Sequence record: PX994957.1
DNA length: 64,000 bases
Direction: 5' to 3' (one strand)
Source of the DNA: a phage
Within the stretch, counting starts at the first letter, position 1; every line of letters starts with the position of its first letter. This document shows, one piece after another, positions 556-55,860 of this stretch. The translations under genes were made by a program, and so were the position numbers. Below the pieces are notes generated by a model. It was not told where the DNA came from. It did no database searches and saw only the letters and a program-made list of their open reading frames with translations.

Positions 556-792
556 TTATTTACCTATCACAGTTTTAATATGAGTTGTTCCACGTTCTTT
601 AAGAGTGGAAAGCAATTTTTGGCATTTTTCTAAATCAGATTTCCAACTATATGGTCTATCTATACTAGTCCAATCAGTTTTATAATACTGCTTCCATTTA
701 GAGAAAAAATATTTCTTATACTCTACAGCAAATGAGATGTTCTCATTAGAATAAGAACTAATTGCTGTGAGCTTTACCAAACGAAATTTCAT
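556..792 (-). CDS. hypothetical early protein, 78 aa (T4 31.2 position)
   Basis: ORF track; 3' end lies in the duplicated unit; start overlaps the cd stop. Confidence 0.55.
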   Translation of the reverse strand: MKFRLVKLTAISSYSNENISFAVEYKKYFFSKWKQYYKTDWTSIDRPYSWKSDLEKCQKLLSTLKERGTTHIKTVIGK

Positions 793-1373
793 TATTCACC
801 ACAGAATTCGTTGATATTTTCCCAGTTTAACTTATTCAAGTTTTTCTTAGGAACATTAAACACTTCAACACCTGCATTTCGCAGAATATCATCCCAGCCA
901 GGTTTATTTTTATCGTATGTTTCGCAATAAACCAGTTTTTTAATACCAGATTGAGCTATCGCTTTTGCACAATCTGGACAAGGAGAAAGTGTTACATACA
1001 TAGTAGCACCTTCAATAGAAGAACCATTTCGTGCAGCAAACAAAATTGCATTTAGTTCAGCATGAATTTCATTTTTAGACGACCATTCAGAGTGAGCGCT
1101 CCGGTGTTCTTTTGCCAAGACAAAACGATCAGTTGAACCAAATGATACGCATTCAGGCTTATGGCCTTGAATGATAGTATGTTTAGGCTTATTCAGCAAC
1201 CAACCTTGCTCAGCAGCATAATCACAACAGTTCACACCACCAGCAGGTGAACCATTATATCCGGTAGAAATAATACGTCCATTCTTTTCAATTACTGCTC
1301 CTACCTTCCAGGAGCAACATTTTGATTCCTGCGATACTAAATATGCAATTTGAAGTACTGTACTCGCTTTCAT
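792..1373 (-). CDS. cd: dCMP deaminase
   Basis: 193 aa; HAE and PCxxC zinc-binding deaminase motifs; matches recalled T4 Cd. Confidence 0.93.
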   Translation of the reverse strand: MKASTVLQIAYLVSQESKCCSWKVGAVIEKNGRIISTGYNGSPAGGVNCCDYAAEQGWLLNKPKHTIIQGHKPECVSFGSTDRFVLAKEHRSAHSEWSSKNEIHAELNAILFAARNGSSIEGATMYVTLSPCPDCAKAIAQSGIKKLVYCETYDKNKPGWDDILRNAGVEVFNVPKKNLNKLNWENINEFCGE

Positions 1374-1708
1374 TTCATAATCACCAGATAAGCAGATTTA
1401 GCAGTTTCAACACGATAAATTTCGTGACGAAGTTTAGTTATACTTTTAATAACAGAACTAATTATATTCTGCCCATCTTTAAAGCGGTTTTTCTTATCAA
1501 TAAAAATTGCGCCAACCATCTTTTTGTGAAGCTCAACTGGATACTTCGTCACAATAATAGCATCATATACGGAAGGATGAATACTATTTACTAGAGTGTC
1601 ATTCATTAAAGTTATTCTAATGAACTGTGCTGTTTCAGAGTCAAGCGCTCTATGATCGCCAGTATCATTTTCAAGACAATTATCAATTATATCAGTTAAA
1701 TTCATCAT
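1370..1708 (-). CDS. hypothetical early protein, 112 aa
   Basis: ORF track; overlapping stop/start with neighbours. Confidence 0.55.
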   Translation of the reverse strand: MMNLTDIIDNCLENDTGDHRALDSETAQFIRITLMNDTLVNSIHPSVYDAIIVTKYPVELHKKMVGAIFIDKKNRFKDGQNIISSVIKSITKLRHEIYRVETAKSAYLVIMK

Positions 1709-1944
1709 AGTACGCCATACACCCTTTGTGCTTCAACTAATCCATCAAAATCTAATTTAAGATGCGATATTTGATCGCCATCACCTGGATTCACAATTAC
1801 TAATACTGAACGAGGAGTTTCAGTAATAACACGAACCGATGTTTCAGGAAATCGTTCAGAAACCTTATTTACCAATTCCTGTGCAAATAGCTTAACTTTT
1901 TCTTGGAATTCTTTAACAGTAATCGGTTTTTCACTTAGCAGCAT
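1705..1944 (-). CDS. hypothetical early protein, 79 aa
   Basis: ORF track; early promoter immediately upstream. Confidence 0.55.
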   Translation of the reverse strand: MLLSEKPITVKEFQEKVKLFAQELVNKVSERFPETSVRVITETPRSVLVIVNPGDGDQISHLKLDFDGLVEAQRVYGVL

Positions 1945-2283: not shown

Positions 2284-2484
2284 TTACCTCACATAATTTT
2301 CTTCGAGCCAATCAATAACATCCAACGCATTATCAAAAGTTGAACCATCTACTTTGTCTTCTGTTTCATAATCAAGAACATCTAAACCTACTCTTCCATT
2401 AACAATAGGCCATAAACAAAACAGGTATTTCTTTTCTTTTTCAATTTTATCACAAAGATGATAAATTTTTTCTATATTATTCAT
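2284..2484 (-). CDS. hypothetical early protein, 66 aa
   Basis: ORF track. Confidence 0.5.
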   Translation of the reverse strand: MNNIEKIYHLCDKIEKEKKYLFCLWPIVNGRVGLDVLDYETEDKVDGSTFDNALDVIDWLEENYVR

Positions 2485-2673
2485 AAGTTTTCCACGGTAA
2501 AGGCAGTTTAGTTTTCTTTACTGTTAGTTCAACATCAGGATTCTTTTCTCTTAATTTAAGGCATTCCTCCCAAGCTCTGATTTCACTAGTGAATACACAA
2601 AATTGCCCATTACTAGTACCGACTAAACCACTATTTACAATAATAATAGCCCAAATTTCATGATGCAAAGCCA

Positions 2674-2674
<1 letters not shown>
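2477..2674 (-). CDS. hypothetical early protein, 65 aa (start overlaps pseT stop)
   Basis: ORF track frame; internal ATG at 2674 abuts pseT stop. Confidence 0.45.
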
Positions 2675-3573
<899 letters not shown>

Positions 3574-27758: not shown

Positions 27759-27789
27759 TTTTGAATAAATATCCTTAAAAGGAGGGTCT

Positions 27790-28446
27790 ATGGCAGCACC
27801 TAGAATATCATTTTCGCCCTCTGATATTCTATTTGGTGTTCTAGATCGCTTGTTCAAAGATAACGCTACCGGGAAAGTTCTTGCTTCCCGGGTAGCTGTC
27901 GTAATTCTTTTGTTTATGATGGCGATTGTTTGGTATAGGGGAGATAGTTTCTTTGAGTACTATAAGCAATCAAAGTATGAAACATACAGTGAAATTATTG
28001 AAAAGGAAAGAAATGCACGCTTTGAATCTGTCGTCCTGGAACAACTCCAGATAGTTCACATATCATCTGAGGCAGACTTTAGTGCGGTGTATTCTTTCCG
28101 CCCTAAAAACTTAAACTATTTTGTTGATATTATAGCATATGAAGGAAAATTACCTTCAACAATAAGTGAAAAATCACTTGGAGGATATCCTGTTGATAAA
28201 ACTATGGATGAATATGCAGTTCATTTAAATGGACGTCATTATTATTCCAACTCAAAATTTGCTTTTTTACCAACTAAAAAGCCTACTCCCGAAATAAACT
28301 ACATGTACAGTTGTCCATATTTTAATTTGGATAATATCTATGCTGGAACAATAACCATGTACTGGTATAGAAATGATCATATAAGTAATGACCGCCTTGA
28401 ATCAATATGTGCCCAGGCGGCCAGAATATTAGGAAGGACTAAATAA
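27790..28446 (+). CDS. t: holin T
   Basis: 218 aa; N-terminal TM segment; matches recalled T4 T. Confidence 0.93.
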   Translation: MAAPRISFSPSDILFGVLDRLFKDNATGKVLASRVAVVILLFMMAIVWYRGDSFFEYYKQSKYETYSEIIEKERNARFESVVLEQLQIVHISSEADFSAVYSFRPKNLNYFVDIIAYEGKLPSTISEKSLGGYPVDKTMDEYAVHLNGRHYYSNSKFAFLPTKKPTPEINYMYSCPYFNLDNIYAGTITMYWYRNDHISNDRLESICAQAARILGRTK

Positions 28447-30538: not shown

Positions 30539-31174
30539 TCACAGTTCAGATGCTACAGTGATTACAGCTTCAATGTTTTCTGCCGAGCGTTTAATGTCAA
30601 GATACACATTACCGTTTTTAGCGATTTTACATGACATTCCGATATCAGTAAATTTCTGAATATGATGTTCCATCATTTTGTATCCAAAAATTCGCATATT
30701 TCCATTGTTGTTAATTTCAAAATTACGAATTCCGTGAGTACGTTTTTCTAAAATAGCGAGATAGTTACTACGATAAGTTTCAACCTTTTTAAGAACAAAT
30801 CCATTTTCATCTAAAAGTTTTAACATGAGGTCTTTATCTTCTTCCATATCAGAAGTAATTTCGCGAGCTTTACGAGTTGCTCGTTTTTTCAGTAGTTCCG
30901 GAGCATTTTCCTGTGCGTATAAAGTTGCTGCATTTGAAATAATATCCTGAGCTTCACCAGTAATGATTAATCCATCACCTGATTTCTCCACCAGGCCTTT
31001 TTTAATCAACACCCCAATATTACTATTAACTACTGCGTTACCTAAATCTGGATGCACCTCACGAACTTCTGCAGCTGTAATGAAATCTTTCTTAGCAATA
31101 GTAATTAAAATCGCAGCAGTTTTTTCATTCAGAACATCGTTAGAAGCTTTGATGATGTAAGTTACTTTAGACAT
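30539..31174 (-). CDS. motA: middle-transcription activator MotA (intact)
   Basis: 211 aa; matches recalled T4 MotA. Confidence 0.93.
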   Translation of the reverse strand: MSKVTYIIKASNDVLNEKTAAILITIAKKDFITAAEVREVHPDLGNAVVNSNIGVLIKKGLVEKSGDGLIITGEAQDIISNAATLYAQENAPELLKKRATRKAREITSDMEEDKDLMLKLLDENGFVLKKVETYRSNYLAILEKRTHGIRNFEINNNGNMRIFGYKMMEHHIQKFTDIGMSCKIAKNGNVYLDIKRSAENIEAVITVASEL

Positions 31175-31215
31175 TTTCTAATCTCCGTAATTCTGTATCA
31201 GTAGTTGATAGTTGT

Positions 31216-31245
31216 ATAGTACCACAGTATGCTTTGGTTGTAAAC
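31216..31245 (-). promoter_or_regulatory. sigma70-type early promoter for motA with conserved leader box
   Basis: minus strand GTTTAC-N18-TACTAT; leader box gtagttgatagttgtatagtacca. Confidence 0.6.
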
Positions 31246-31271
31246 CGTTTTGTGAAAAAAAAAATTAAAAT

Positions 31272-31297
31272 AAAAAAGGGAGAGCCTCGGCTCTCCC
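31272..31297 (-). terminator. rho-independent terminator (copy A)
   Basis: GGGAGAGCC-GAG-GCUCUCCC followed by U6 on minus strand. Confidence 0.7.
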
Positions 31298-31302
31298 TAA
31301 AA

Positions 31303-31452
31303 TTACTGCATGACTGTGATAACTGTCATGATAACACGTTGAATTCCGAACGCAAGAAGACCTCCTGCTACGGCTGGAACAACACCTAAACCCGCCAGTA
31401 AAATGCTACCGGATACTAATGCAGCGCTTGTAATACCTATGAATGGACTCAT
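31303..31452 (-). CDS. small hydrophobic membrane protein, 49 aa (copy A)
   Basis: own translation MSPFIGITSAALVSG...; ATG overlaps upstream stop (ATGA). Confidence 0.5.
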   Translation of the reverse strand: MSPFIGITSAALVSGSILLAGLGVVPAVAGGLLAFGIQRVIMTVITVMQ

Positions 31453-32174
31453 TTGATTTCCTCTAAATCTTTAGTGTATTCGGTAACTACATTAGTAGTT
31501 TTCCAATATTCGTTTTCTTCTTTCTTAGCTTTAGCTTCTTCAGCAAGTTTCTTTGCTTCGTCGGAAGTCATATGAAAAATATTCATTCCAACTAGTTTAT
31601 CAACATAAGAAGAATACATATCGATTTTCGAAAGTTCTTCGGTCAGTTCTTTGCGAGTTTTACCCTGCACAACGATTTCACCTGAAATTACTTTCTTAAT
31701 GAAATGTGCCTTGGCAAAGGCTAAACGAAAAGCTGACTCAGTTTCTTTGATTTTGTTATCAATTCGTTTTTGGACATAAGTTTTACGAACTTCAACAAAG
31801 TCTTTAATTAAATCAAGTTTTAACATGAGGTCTTTATCTTCTTCCATATCAGAAGTAATTTCGCGAGCTTTACGAGTTGCTCGTTTTTTCAGTAGTTCCG
31901 GAGCATTTTCCTGTGCGTATAAAGTTGCTGCATTTGAAATAATATCCTGAGCTTCACCAGTAATGATTAATCCATCACCTGATTTCTCCACCAGGCCTTT
32001 TTTAATCAACACCCCAATATTACTATTAACTACTGCGTTACCTAAATCTGGATGCACCTCACGAACTTCTGCAGCTGTAATGAAATCTTTCTTAGCAATA
32101 GTAATTAAAATCGCAGCAGTTTTTTCATTCAGAACATCGTTAGAAGCTTTGATGATGTAAGTTACTTTAGACAT
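31449..32174 (-). CDS. chimeric ORF: MotA residues 1-120 fused in frame to gp52 residues 322-442
   Basis: 241-aa ORF; N-terminal half identical to motA, C-terminal half identical to the gene 52 3' end; lies on the duplication junction 31816/31817. Confidence 0.8.
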   Translation of the reverse strand: MSKVTYIIKASNDVLNEKTAAILITIAKKDFITAAEVREVHPDLGNAVVNSNIGVLIKKGLVEKSGDGLIITGEAQDIISNAATLYAQENAPELLKKRATRKAREITSDMEEDKDLMLKLDLIKDFVEVRKTYVQKRIDNKIKETESAFRLAFAKAHFIKKVISGEIVVQGKTRKELTEELSKIDMYSSYVDKLVGMNIFHMTSDEAKKLAEEAKAKKEENEYWKTTNVVTEYTKDLEEIK

Positions 32175-32215
32175 TTTCTAATCTCCGTAATTCTGTATCA
32201 GTAGTTGATAGTTGT

Positions 32216-32245
32216 ATAGTACCACAGTATGCTTTGGTTGTAAAC
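32216..32245 (-). promoter_or_regulatory. duplicate copy of the motA early promoter, now upstream of the chimeric ORF
   Basis: identical to 31216-31245. Confidence 0.6.
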
Positions 32246-32271
32246 CGTTTTGTGAAAAAAAAAATTAAAAT

Positions 32272-32297
32272 AAAAAAGGGAGAGCCTCGGCTCTCCC
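32272..32297 (-). terminator. rho-independent terminator (copy B)
   Basis: identical to 31272-31297. Confidence 0.7.
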
Positions 32298-32302
32298 TAA
32301 AA

Positions 32303-32452
32303 TTACTGCATGACTGTGATAACTGTCATGATAACACGTTGAATTCCGAACGCAAGAAGACCTCCTGCTACGGCTGGAACAACACCTAAACCCGCCAGTA
32401 AAATGCTACCGGATACTAATGCAGCGCTTGTAATACCTATGAATGGACTCAT
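32303..32452 (-). CDS. small hydrophobic membrane protein, 49 aa (copy B)
   Basis: identical to 31303-31452. Confidence 0.5.
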   Translation of the reverse strand: MSPFIGITSAALVSGSILLAGLGVVPAVAGGLLAFGIQRVIMTVITVMQ

Positions 32453-33777
32453 TTGATTTCCTCTAAATCTTTAGTGTATTCGGTAACTACATTAGTAGTT
32501 TTCCAATATTCGTTTTCTTCTTTCTTAGCTTTAGCTTCTTCAGCAAGTTTCTTTGCTTCGTCGGAAGTCATATGAAAAATATTCATTCCAACTAGTTTAT
32601 CAACATAAGAAGAATACATATCGATTTTCGAAAGTTCTTCGGTCAGTTCTTTGCGAGTTTTACCCTGCACAACGATTTCACCTGAAATTACTTTCTTAAT
32701 GAAATGTGCCTTGGCAAAGGCTAAACGAAAAGCTGACTCAGTTTCTTTGATTTTGTTATCAATTCGTTTTTGGACATAAGTTTTACGAACTTCAACAAAG
32801 TCTTTAATTAAATCAACTACGTTATCGTAAACTTGTAGTTTTCCTTTCTCATTAATAACCGTAATATTCTGAGAACGACGCTCAATCAACCCGAAGTCTT
32901 TCATAATTTTTGCATGGCGTTCTTCTTCGTTATCGCTCAAAGAATATTCTTTACGGAATTTAACTTTGAATCCAAAACCATGCTCACCACAAGCATCATC
33001 CCATGTAATGAAGCCTTTATCTTCAAGTGGGTCTAAGATTTTACTCACATAAGTTTCACGATCATACTTATACGGAATCTCAGTGATATGCATTTGAGTT
33101 CGTGAAGTAAACTTATATGTTCCACGAATTTCATATTGGCCATCAATCTCAACGACTTCACCACGAAATTCTGGGAATTCTACCTTCGGTTTAGTTACTT
33201 TCTTTCCTTGAAGAGCTTGTAATACAGCTTTCTTAACAGAAGAAACACTATGAGGAAGAATGTAAGTTGCATAACCAGTTGCAATACCGGAAACACCATT
33301 AAGAAGAACAGTAGGAATAATAGGCAAATAGAAAGCAGGCGGAATGTGTTCTTTATCTTGATGTACCGGAGCATATTCAGTATCTTTATATACGTTATAG
33401 AAATTTTTACTTACACGAGCAAAAATATAACGACTTGCTGCTGCTTTTTGGACGGTACGAGAACCAAAGTTTCCTTGACCATCTAACAGAGGAAAATTAT
33501 TATTCCAAGTGTTAGCCATCAAAGCACCTGCGTCTTGCGCAGAGTTTTCACCATGATGATATCCAAGGTCCGCTACACCACCTGCAATAGAAGCGAGTTT
33601 GTGAAACTTATCTTTATTTCCTCGTGCCAAATCAAGAGCTCGAGCAATAACAAATCGTTGAACTGGCTTAAATCCGTCAATCATATTTGGAATGGCACGA
33701 TTTTCAACCGTGTACATAGCATAAGCCAATGCTTCATTATCAATGATACTTTTTAAATCGCGATTATTCAGTTGCAT
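32449..33777 (-). CDS. 52: DNA topoisomerase II medium subunit gp52 (GyrA-like, intact)
   Basis: 442 aa; catalytic-Tyr region AASRYI; T4 synteny. Confidence 0.93.
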   Translation of the reverse strand: MQLNNRDLKSIIDNEALAYAMYTVENRAIPNMIDGFKPVQRFVIARALDLARGNKDKFHKLASIAGGVADLGYHHGENSAQDAGALMANTWNNNFPLLDGQGNFGSRTVQKAAASRYIFARVSKNFYNVYKDTEYAPVHQDKEHIPPAFYLPIIPTVLLNGVSGIATGYATYILPHSVSSVKKAVLQALQGKKVTKPKVEFPEFRGEVVEIDGQYEIRGTYKFTSRTQMHITEIPYKYDRETYVSKILDPLEDKGFITWDDACGEHGFGFKVKFRKEYSLSDNEEERHAKIMKDFGLIERRSQNITVINEKGKLQVYDNVVDLIKDFVEVRKTYVQKRIDNKIKETESAFRLAFAKAHFIKKVISGEIVVQGKTRKELTEELSKIDMYSSYVDKLVGMNIFHMTSDEAKKLAEEAKAKKEENEYWKTTNVVTEYTKDLEEIK

Positions 33778-53517: not shown

Positions 53518-54036
53518 TTAATAACCTCGGTCTTGACGTGCGAAATTTTCAGCATTTTTCAGGTAATAAAGTTTAAAGATTTCTTCTGCTGTAAGACCAA
53601 GACCTTGGAACATGTTCAGAACGAAATGGAGAATATCAATCATTTCAAACTTAATTTCCAGTTGGTCTTGTGGAGACAAATCAGTAATCAGAGTTTCACG
53701 GCGTTCACCATGCTGCGACTTCCAAGGCTTCCATACAGCAGATGCATCTTTTTCACCATTGCTCATACCACCAAGAGAAGTCAGAAGTTCACGGAATTCA
53801 TCATCAATATAATCTTTCTGATTACGCAACCAATCAACAACTTCACCGGCAGTAGCCAAGTCATCAGGATGACGATTATATTCAGGTTTATCTTTAGCTA
53901 AACGAATTTGCAGAGATTTCTGCATGTCAAGCATTACCTGCAGCGGGTCTTTTTCATCACCGAGAATATCCCAATATTCATTTTGAGCTTTATCAGCGCC
54001 TTCGATCAGTTGACTACATTCGTTGAAATGTGGCAT
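53518..54036 (-). CDS. 56: dCTPase/dUTPase gp56 (MazG-like pyrophosphatase)
   Basis: 172 aa; T4 synteny. Confidence 0.88.
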   Translation of the reverse strand: MPHFNECSQLIEGADKAQNEYWDILGDEKDPLQVMLDMQKSLQIRLAKDKPEYNRHPDDLATAGEVVDWLRNQKDYIDDEFRELLTSLGGMSNGEKDASAVWKPWKSQHGERRETLITDLSPQDQLEIKFEMIDILHFVLNMFQGLGLTAEEIFKLYYLKNAENFARQDRGY

Positions 54037-54109
54037 GTTATTTTTCCTTTCAATTCATGGGTTAGTAGATTAATTATACAATAAATATATAAAGCAATAA
54101 GGAGGACAT

Positions 54110-54310
54110 ATGGTACAAAAATTAATGGCACTTGTTAATGCCATAAAAGGTAATAAAAAACGTATAGCTTTTACTATTTCTGCTATGGTAGGAATTTTAC
54201 TCTGGAACTTTATTCTATCACCTGTTGCAATTGCGCATGGTATTAATATTCCAGTAGTTACTCTTGATACATTTGTAGATTTAGCATTTGCTTTAGTTGG
54301 GTTAATTTAA
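54110..54310 (+). CDS. small predicted membrane protein, 66 aa, on the opposite strand between genes 56 and 61
   Basis: ATG preceded by AAGGAGGA RBS; two hydrophobic segments; fills the gap exactly. Confidence 0.5.
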   Translation: MVQKLMALVNAIKGNKKRIAFTISAMVGILLWNFILSPVAIAHGINIPVVTLDTFVDLAFALVGLI

Positions 54311-55335
54311 ATCTTAGCATATTTAGATAGCCGCATTTTAGCCATCAACCCCTGGGCAATATTATTTTTCATATATTCCATAATTTGTTCAGGGGTTGCA
54401 CCTTCCTTTCTAATCATATCATTAACATCTTTTGATTTCCAGGGAGATTTATCCCAAAACATAACCCTTTCTCCTGCATCAACTAATTTAGTCATTCGCT
54501 TAATAGTGTCAGGATGACGAGGTTCATTATCTAAGACCCACACACGCCTATCTTTAAATGGAACAACTTCTAGGTCTAATTGACCACCCGTAATAGCTAT
54601 ACCATTTTCAATAAAAAGTGAATCTATAGGTCCTTCTAGAACATATACATCGCCATCTTTAACTCGTTCAACACCGTAAATTTTTGTTGCCTCAGGATAA
54701 GCTTTAATGGTGATATATTTTTGAGGAGCATCTTTCTTTAATGCACGTCCTTGAAAAGACTCAGCTTTTCCATTAGCATTATAAATTGGAATAACAAGAC
54801 GAGGCTCAGAAATTTCCTTTTTGTATGTTCCCGGTGCTATGCTATTAACTAATTTAGGCCATTCGGTTGTAAACCAAAGATATTTCCATTTATCCTTTGG
54901 AATACAACGAGCTTTTACATATTTTATAATTGGATGGTCTTCCGCCAGTTTATCTAATCTAACACACGACGGAAGAGATTTAATTATTTTCTTCTCAGGT
55001 TGTTTAGGAAGTTCTTTAGGTTTTTCTACTGGACGACTTTTACCTTTTTCTTTTCTTATTTCAAAGATATACTCACGATATAAATCGGGTTCAAACTCCT
55101 TTAAATATATTCCGATTGGTGCATGATAGTTACAGTTATAACAATGAATATTTCCTTCATTATTATCACCATAATACCATCCACGAGCTTTATTCTGATC
55201 GGTTTTTGAATCTCCACAAACAGGGCATCTAAACCGCAATTTAAAAGTTGAACTATTATTTACTTGTGTGAATTTAGGTAAATGAGCTAATGCACGATAC
55301 GCAAACTCATTATCAATCCAAGGTATTGATGACAT
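54307..55335 (-). CDS. 61: DNA primase gp61
   Basis: 342 aa; zinc-ribbon CPVCGDSK ... CYNC; Toprim region. Confidence 0.93.
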   Translation of the reverse strand: MSSIPWIDNEFAYRALAHLPKFTQVNNSSTFKLRFRCPVCGDSKTDQNKARGWYYGDNNEGNIHCYNCNYHAPIGIYLKEFEPDLYREYIFEIRKEKGKSRPVEKPKELPKQPEKKIIKSLPSCVRLDKLAEDHPIIKYVKARCIPKDKWKYLWFTTEWPKLVNSIAPGTYKKEISEPRLVIPIYNANGKAESFQGRALKKDAPQKYITIKAYPEATKIYGVERVKDGDVYVLEGPIDSLFIENGIAITGGQLDLEVVPFKDRRVWVLDNEPRHPDTIKRMTKLVDAGERVMFWDKSPWKSKDVNDMIRKEGATPEQIMEYMKNNIAQGLMAKMRLSKYAKI

Positions 55336-55503: not shown

Positions 55504-55860
55504 TTAACCTCTATTCATAAAAGCATTAAAAATTTGGTCATCAATAGATGGAATAGCAACCTTTTCGGCATCATTTAGCAAATCATTAATTTCATCAGAT
55601 AGCATAACACATGTGCCTTTATTTCCTGTAATTGTTACTGCGCAATTACGAACGTTTTCTTTATCAAATTTTAGGTTAATATTTTCGTAGTGAAAATCCT
55701 TTAATGCCGAATATATCTTTAAAATGAAATTGTCTTTTACTACAATAAACCCAACCTCACTATTAAAACGTGGTTCATGGAAACTGTAATAAACCTTTTC
55801 ATCTATAAAATCGTATGAAATTTTTTCCATTTTTAAATATGAAAATTCAGAACTATACAT
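55504..55860 (-). CDS. hypothetical protein, 118 aa (61.1 position); shares a C-terminal tail with the next ORF
   Basis: ORF track; tail SIDDQIFNAFMNRG. Confidence 0.55.
   Translation of the reverse strand: MYSSEFSYLKMEKISYDFIDEKVYYSFHEPRFNSEVGFIVVKDNFILKIYSALKDFHYENINLKFDKENVRNCAVTITGNKGTCVMLSDEINDLLNDAEKVAIPSIDDQIFNAFMNRG

Follow-up and report, generated by a model that had tools for sequence, protein, structure and literature searches.

The opposite-strand dam.1 gene beside the primase gene of T-even-type phages very likely encodes a late small membrane protein

What is a lone plus-strand reading frame doing in a long block of early genes that otherwise run on the minus strand? We analysed a 64,000-nt stretch of phage DNA (record PX994957.1; hereafter the window, numbered from its first letter) in which a preliminary description, drawn up from the sequence alone, had placed a 66-aa membrane mini-protein of uncertain expression on the opposite strand between genes 56 and 61. 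The source is a T4-type phage of the genus Tequatrovirus, and positions 53900-54450 of the window are 100% identical to Shigella phage Sf23. The ORF is indeed present, running on the plus strand for 66 codons from an ATG at 54110 to a TAA at 54308..54310 (Table 1). The span first given for it, 54037-54310, has the correct end, but position 54037 is the first base past the start codon of gene 56 and not the start of the ORF. In the Sf23 annotation the ORF is the sole plus-strand CDS among 41 features within 10 kb on either side, which bears out the claim that it alone interrupts the minus-strand early block, here about 20 kb long.

Several features of the locus are those expected of a gene. The strong Shine-Dalgarno sequence reported 4 nt before the ATG is in place, and the combination AAGGAGG-N3-9-ATG occurs at three sites on the two strands of the 64-kb window, one of them the ORF considered here and another the holin gene t (27779). 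The stop codon of gene 61 (54309..54307, minus strand) shares 2 nt with that of the ORF, confirming that the two stops overlap. When the 274-nt gap between genes 56 and 61 is shuffled, a plus-strand ORF of at least 66 codons arises by chance in 1.1-1.6% of cases. The ORF list holds no minus-strand ORF spanning this stretch, and no Rfam family matches between 53400 and 55000.

Table 1 Features of the dam.1 locus in the window.
Feature	Position	Strand	Basis and remarks
Gene 56, dCTP pyrophosphatase	53518..54036	-	Divergent neighbour of the dam.1 ORF
MotA-type middle promoter of gene 56	54073..54096	-	Sequence read; MotA box TGCTTTA 54096..54090, -10 TATAAT 54078..54073
Late-promoter-like box AATAAATA, A(-13) variant of TATAAATA	54080..54087	+	22 nt before ATG
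Shine-Dalgarno AAGGAGG of the dam.1 ORF	54099..54105	+	ACAT spacer, 4 nt, then ATG
Small membrane protein CDS (predicted), 66 aa	54110..54310	+	ORF list, PHROG 2024, tblastn; orthologue of T4T dam.1, RB69ORF029w and Sf23 gp153
Terminator-like hairpin and T-run	54115..54144	-	Consensus scan; hairpin 54144..54125, then T-run; inside codons 2-12 of the dam.1 ORF
Predicted transmembrane helix IAFTISAMVGILLWNFILSPVAIA, codons 19-42	54164..54235	+	Hydropathy 2.0, AlphaFold2 helix 16-42; W32-N33-(F/Y)34, P38
Short C-terminal amphipathic helix (predicted), codons 52-63	54263..54298	+	AlphaFold2 helix 52-63, family alignment; D53 (E in distant members)
Gene 61, DNA primase	54307..55335	-	Convergent neighbour of the dam.1 ORF; tail-to-tail overlap 4 nt

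The ORF is already known: it is annotated in hundreds of genomes, where it is uncharacterised, and is not a new kind of element. Its product is 100% identical to Sf23 gp153 ("predicted membrane protein") and 98.5% identical to Dam.1 of phage T4T (ADJ39749.1; T4T is HM137666), whose gene name we use here. It matches PHROG 2024 (function unknown) with an E-value of 1.4e-31, protein residues 2-66 aligning with profile positions 1-65, and it is related to RB69ORF029w, to which the record of phage PhAPEC2 refers. In the T4 reference record, NC_000866, dam and 61 are separated by 309 bp without annotation, yet an intact ORF lies there (1739..1939 of our T4 locus L007). The gene is thus missing from the annotation on which most omics studies and knockout screens are based. 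We found no papers mentioning dam.1 or RB69ORF029w in the searchable literature, including work on T4 start-site mapping and ribosome profiling.

Two further observations concern the window at large. First, the interval between genes 61 and 41, said to hold five 61.x-type genes, contains six ORFs: 61.1, an extra 118-aa ORF, 61.2, sp, 61.4 and dmd. The extra ORF (55504..55860, minus strand), which lies between 61.1 and 61.2 and is absent from T4, corresponds to Sf23 gp156, annotated as 'similar to phage slur07 gp168'; its C-terminus (…SIDDQIFNAFMNRG) repeats that of the adjoining 213-aa 61.2-like ORF (…SIDDQIFNAFMNKG), and the shared ending suggests a partial duplication. Second, exactly 1000 bp are perfectly repeated in tandem in the region of motA and gene 52 (topoisomerase), 30815..31814 being identical at 100% to 31815..32814, and the repeat creates a truncated extra ORF of 241 aa (31449..32174). 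Among the matches listed, the best relatives account for the 3001-bp query with only some 2002 bp of sequence and thus lack the extra copy. The round length and perfect identity of the repeat suggest an artefact of assembly or construction and not biology.

How widely is the gene kept? A tblastn search with the window protein found it in 697 phage records. At 90% identity or above there were 503 records, all Tequatrovirus-like, a number similar to that for gp61 at 95% or above (502 records); another 194 records fell below 60% identity and include Mosigvirus, Gaprivervirus and Kanagawavirus. Searching with a distant family member, P0046, recovered 183 records, mostly from other genera and mostly phages of Klebsiella, Citrobacter and Salmonella. 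In every locus that we opened, covering Tequatro-, Mosig-, Gapriver-, Kanagawa-, Karam-, Jiaoda- and Gelderlandvirus, the ORF lies on the strand opposite its neighbours, tail to tail with gene 61. The gene on its other side varies, being 56, dam, a homing endonuclease, a MazG-like gene or an unknown gene of 1.5 kb. Conservation of the reading frame in relatives had been proposed as a check, and the frame is kept in all seven of these Tevenvirinae genera with the same position and orientation.

The substitutions in the ORF have the pattern of a coding sequence. Between Tequatrovirus and Mosigvirus the differences at codon positions 1, 2 and 3 number 29, 12 and 40, and the near-constant second position is compatible with a hydrophobic protein. 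Comparisons inside Tequatrovirus and inside Mosigvirus give a dN/dS (Nei-Gojobori) of 0.09-0.14; for those inside Gaprivervirus the value is 0.28. Across genera the frame stays open at 25-55% amino-acid identity, and GGAGG or GGAG followed by the ATG is kept at the start of the ORF in all related loci compared. Judged from these patterns, dam.1 is a real protein-coding gene under purifying selection; the conserved frame, a dN/dS of about 0.1 and the excess of third- over first- and of first- over second-position differences uphold the original reading of a real gene for a small membrane protein.

We found no small opposite-strand ORF beside gene 61 in four more distant T4-like phages, namely Krischvirus, Pseudotevenvirus, an Acinetobacter Lazarusvirus and Serratia phage 4S, and the gene therefore appears to be confined to the Tevenvirinae. 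Given that dam.1 is retained across the sampled genera of the subfamily, is under purifying selection and has no counterpart beside gene 61 in these four phages, it is probably useful and subfamily-specific. An unannotated gap of 590 bp after the primase gene of Krischvirus KFS-EC (L019) contains no member of the family; it holds a 187-aa ORF on the same strand (2344..2907) that looks like a candidate homing endonuclease.

When would such a gene be expressed? The early and middle transcripts of T4 all have one polarity, and its late transcripts have either polarity (PMC2988020); we infer that the shared early and middle polarity is that of the minus strand in this window. It had been noted that no exact late promoter is visible upstream of the ORF. 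That is correct for the exact sequence TATAAATA, which is missing from the near upstream region, but the A(-13) variant AATAAATA is present there (Table 1). Of the 50 late promoters listed for T4, 32 are exact and 9 have A at -13, making this the commonest variant, and the others are mostly single changes, with two exceptions, one of which is a TA-to-AT change (PMC2988020). Position -13 is also poorly conserved in T4-related phages, according to Nolan et al. (PMC1524935).

Within the window, the motif ATAAATA occurs 13 times on both strands (128 kb counted), and at 5 of these 13 sites a ribosome-binding site and an ATG follow within 18-34 nt. The five genes downstream are the holin gene t, soc, the dam.1 ORF and two whose products start MAEIKR and MADLKVGSTT; from their N-termini, we take the last two to be the counterparts of T4 genes 34 and 36. 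The variant found upstream of dam.1, AATAAATA, also precedes gene t (27764..27771), and TATAAATA precedes soc.

The box is conserved in relatives as well. A late-type box lies 14-22 nt before the ATG in all 11 related loci and departs from the consensus in the first two positions at most. The form NATAAATA stands 15-22 nt before the ATG in 9 of the 11, with exact TATAAATA found in Kanagawavirus Q7622; the Karamvirus and Gelderlandvirus loci (2 of the 11) have ATTAAATA at the equivalent place. The box is close to the consensus but not exact in this window, and the T4 version begins with G. T4 and the IMG/VR contig L012 have unrelated sequence further upstream, with similarity starting at about the box. 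The presence of the box in 11 of 11 loci lessens the earlier doubt about expression, and the promoter sequences indicate that dam.1 is very probably a gp55-dependent late gene.

The same short spacer also serves the minus strand. Within the 73 nt that separate the ATG of the ORF from the start of gene 56 lie both the plus-strand late box and the middle promoter of gene 56, the box falling inside the spacer of that promoter. At the equivalent place, the record of phage fPS-90 carries the annotation 'predicted middle promoter'. By alignment, this promoter is also found upstream of gene 56 in T4; its spacer differs there, as dam intervenes between 56 and dam.1.

Comparison of window positions 54037..54109 with 786..1739 of the T4 locus shows that there is no dam between gene 56 and the small ORF here. 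Similar promoter-like sequences (…AATTATACAAT…) stand upstream of gene 56 in this phage and upstream of dam in T4, so dam looks to have been inserted or deleted between the two. In other relatives this spot holds some 650 bp encoding a homing endonuclease.

A second minus-strand signal is the terminator-like hairpin among the first dozen codons of the ORF. Several records, that of fPS-90 included, annotate a terminator here, and gene 61 transcripts probably end at it. We saw this hairpin in Tequatrovirus only; it does not form in the other genera tested, so a conserved terminator does not account for conservation of the 5' part of the ORF.

The arrangement of the two strands raises the question of whether the RNA, and not the peptide, is the main product. 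According to this explanation, late transcription into gene 61 and beyond would silence the primase and neighbouring early mRNAs, and the peptide would be secondary. In most genera the tails of the dam.1 ORF and gene 61 do share 4 nt, and T4 transcribes both strands at several sites at different times (PMC2988020). No terminator-like site is found on the plus strand after the ORF before 58864, about 4.5 kb away, and a late dam.1 transcript may therefore run antisense through gene 61 in this phage. In Tequatrovirus, moreover, the probable end point of gene 61 transcripts is the hairpin in the 5' part of the ORF, which would leave about 190 nt of complementarity between the two RNAs; in this genus, and not in the others, the gene 61 mRNA would have its 3' end antisense to the dam.1 ORF.

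In spite of these points, we consider antisense control improbable as the main role. The protein sequence itself is under purifying selection, and the hairpin inside the ORF is limited to Tequatrovirus. In addition, Jiaodavirus has a G+C-rich stem-loop between the ORF and gene 61, and the two genes of Gaprivervirus stand about 110 nt apart, with hairpins in between; read-through is therefore not a feature that the genera share. An antisense effect could still be a side effect in this phage.

What kind of protein would this be? Residues 1-18 include five Lys or Arg and no acidic residue, giving a net charge of +5. In Kyte-Doolittle windows of 19 residues, hydropathy peaks at 2.0 for residues 19-43 and at 1.86 for residues 47-66, the latter containing two Asp, in agreement with the two hydrophobic segments first described. 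An AlphaFold2 model built from a 13-sequence alignment has a mean pLDDT of 78.7 and helices at residues 2-12, 16-42 and 52-63. In this window the second segment is hydrophobic enough (1.86) to cross the membrane, but distant members have a short, partly polar C-terminal segment (e.g. PLEKAIQYIMLGGF), and family-wide it looks like an interfacial amphipathic helix and not a second span. Basic segments stay cytoplasmic according to the positive-inside rule, and the likeliest topology therefore has a single span, with the N-terminal end cytoplasmic and the C-terminal end periplasmic.

The family alignment shows where the constraint lies. P38 is invariant, W32 and N33 reach at least 90% conservation, and G44 and P48 are common, as is an acidic residue at position 53. 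The most conserved residues (W32-N33-F/Y34, P38, G44, P48 and D/E53) thus fall within the outer half of the membrane helix or shortly after it. Such a location suggests a protein that acts through binding to a membrane partner, of phage or host origin, and not an enzyme.

Could residues 1-42 instead be a cleavable signal peptide, so that a peptide of about 24 residues (HGINIPVVTLDTFVDLAFALVGLI) is secreted into the periplasm? In favour of this, the N-terminus is basic, invariant Pro38 would be at -5, and the residues at -3 and -1 are usually small (AIA|HG here; ALA, AAT, AAS or AGT elsewhere). Nevertheless, a hydrophobic core of 19-24 residues suits a membrane anchor better, the near-invariant WN(F/Y) lies inside that core, where a disposable signal peptide would have no need of it, and the residue at -1 is Phe in one member and Thr in several. 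We therefore find a cleaved, secreted product hard to credit, and an anchored membrane protein accounts better for the conserved core.

Searches for relatives outside the family were uninformative as to function. Among 1.84 billion representative proteins, a profile search retrieved 15 matches of 44-72 aa, the shortest of them fragments; those that could be placed by tblastn or synteny are all in T-even-type phages, none with a known function. Scans of 13 family members against Pfam and NCBIfam, with E-values up to 10, yielded chance-level matches and no holin family. In type I toxin-antitoxin systems a dedicated antisense RNA overlaps the mRNA of a small hydrophobic toxin; the one match to a toxin family, Ldr_toxin (E 0.1, in 1 of the 13), was likewise at chance level. 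A profile search with the family model found no paralogue among all ORFs of the window. The AlphaFold2 model had no fold match in BFVD outside its own family, and a 66-aa model of a helix, a loop and a helix would give little fold information.

These searches bear on the possibility that dam.1 encodes a lysis protein of the holin or pinholin type. The product is small and hydrophobic, the late-type box is the same variant as that of gene t, and a close homologue, from phage OE5505, is named 'Holin' in UniProt/UniRef and BFVD. That name is not supported by our data: 0 of 13 family members match a Pfam or NCBIfam holin model even at E-values up to 10. The C-terminus, …DLAFALVGLI, is hydrophobic without a charged tail, the charges being at the N-terminus, and the second hydrophobic segment of distant members is neither long nor apolar enough to cross a membrane. 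Furthermore, the gene is not beside endolysin or spanin genes, and a full-length T holin is already present at 27790..28446. We consider a holin quite implausible on these grounds. The weakest explanation, that the ORF is untranslated and the stretch is conserved because gene 61 has its 3' untranslated end and terminator here and gene 56 its promoter, can point to a terminator-like hairpin and a MotA-type middle promoter that do occur on the minus strand and to the missing annotation in the T4 reference record, but it is made very improbable by the codon-position periodicity and dN/dS of about 0.1, the frame that stays open at 25-55% identity across genera, the hairpin that is not conserved outside Tequatrovirus, the strong Shine-Dalgarno sequence and ATG in every locus compared, and the lack of an Rfam match.

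Taken jointly, that dam.1 is a real gene, of the late class, for a membrane protein is a reading in which we have high confidence. Its ORF, conservation, purifying selection, synteny, promoter-like box and hydrophobicity are direct observations; late transcription, topology in the membrane and function are inferred from them. We propose the following scheme for its expression and assembly. After DNA replication begins, RNA polymerase carrying gp55 would initiate a few bases downstream of the AATAAATA box and produce an mRNA with a short leader, on which the strong Shine-Dalgarno sequence would drive translation of the 66-aa protein. The product would insert in the inner membrane, where its Lys/Arg-rich N-terminal amphipathic helix (residues 1-18, +5) would stay cytoplasmic; a single transmembrane helix at about residues 19-42 would follow, and an acidic tail of about 24 residues with a short amphipathic helix would lie at the periplasmic face.

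What the protein might do there is much more speculative. Our best guess is that it binds a membrane partner through its conserved residues in and near the membrane, and the likeliest setting is the cell envelope in late infection, for example lysis timing or membrane integrity; we hold this last step with low confidence, and any lysis-related role seems to us rather unlikely, if worth keeping in view. More specifically, and with slightly less confidence still, dam.1 might be an overlooked late envelope factor of most or all Tevenvirinae, such as a partner of the T holin helix or of another inner-membrane machine that tunes lysis or membrane integrity. If so, the missing annotation in the T4 reference record would explain why it was overlooked. 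The protein would also evade shotgun proteomics, because it consists almost wholly of one 48-residue hydrophobic tryptic peptide.

How does dam.1 compare with known systems? The closest are T4T Dam.1, RB69ORF029w and Sf23 gp153, which are the same gene, with the same length, opposite orientation and position between 56 or dam and 61. This phage differs from T4T and T4 in having no dam; for this reason the ORF starts just 73 nt from the start of gene 56 and its late box lies within the spacer of the gene 56 middle promoter. The box itself also differs, being GATAAATA in T4 and AATAAATA in this window.

Three other small membrane proteins offer more distant parallels. The T4 RI antiholin (97 aa, with a signal-anchor-release segment and a periplasmic domain) is also a small T-even protein that has its membrane segment at the N-terminus and its C-terminal part in the periplasm, and the membrane segments of both contain '…LSP…'. 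In contrast to dam.1, rI is on the early strand; the periplasmic part of dam.1 is only about 24 residues long, and there is no detectable homology. Indeed, a kinship suggested by eye from the '…LSP…' motif was rejected, with an hhalign probability of 0.3% and a BLASTP E-value of 0.32. Class II holins or pinholins, such as S68 of phage 21 (about 68 aa, two membrane segments), are similar in size, with two hydrophobic stretches, and share the probable late expression of dam.1, whereas dam.1 has its charge at the N-terminus with no charged C-terminal tail, is not part of a lysis cassette and matches no holin model. Finally, the superinfection immunity protein Imm of T4, encoded near gene 42, is like dam.1 in being a small T-even inner-membrane protein without an enzymatic domain; imm, however, is on the minus (early) strand, and dam.1 is on the plus strand.
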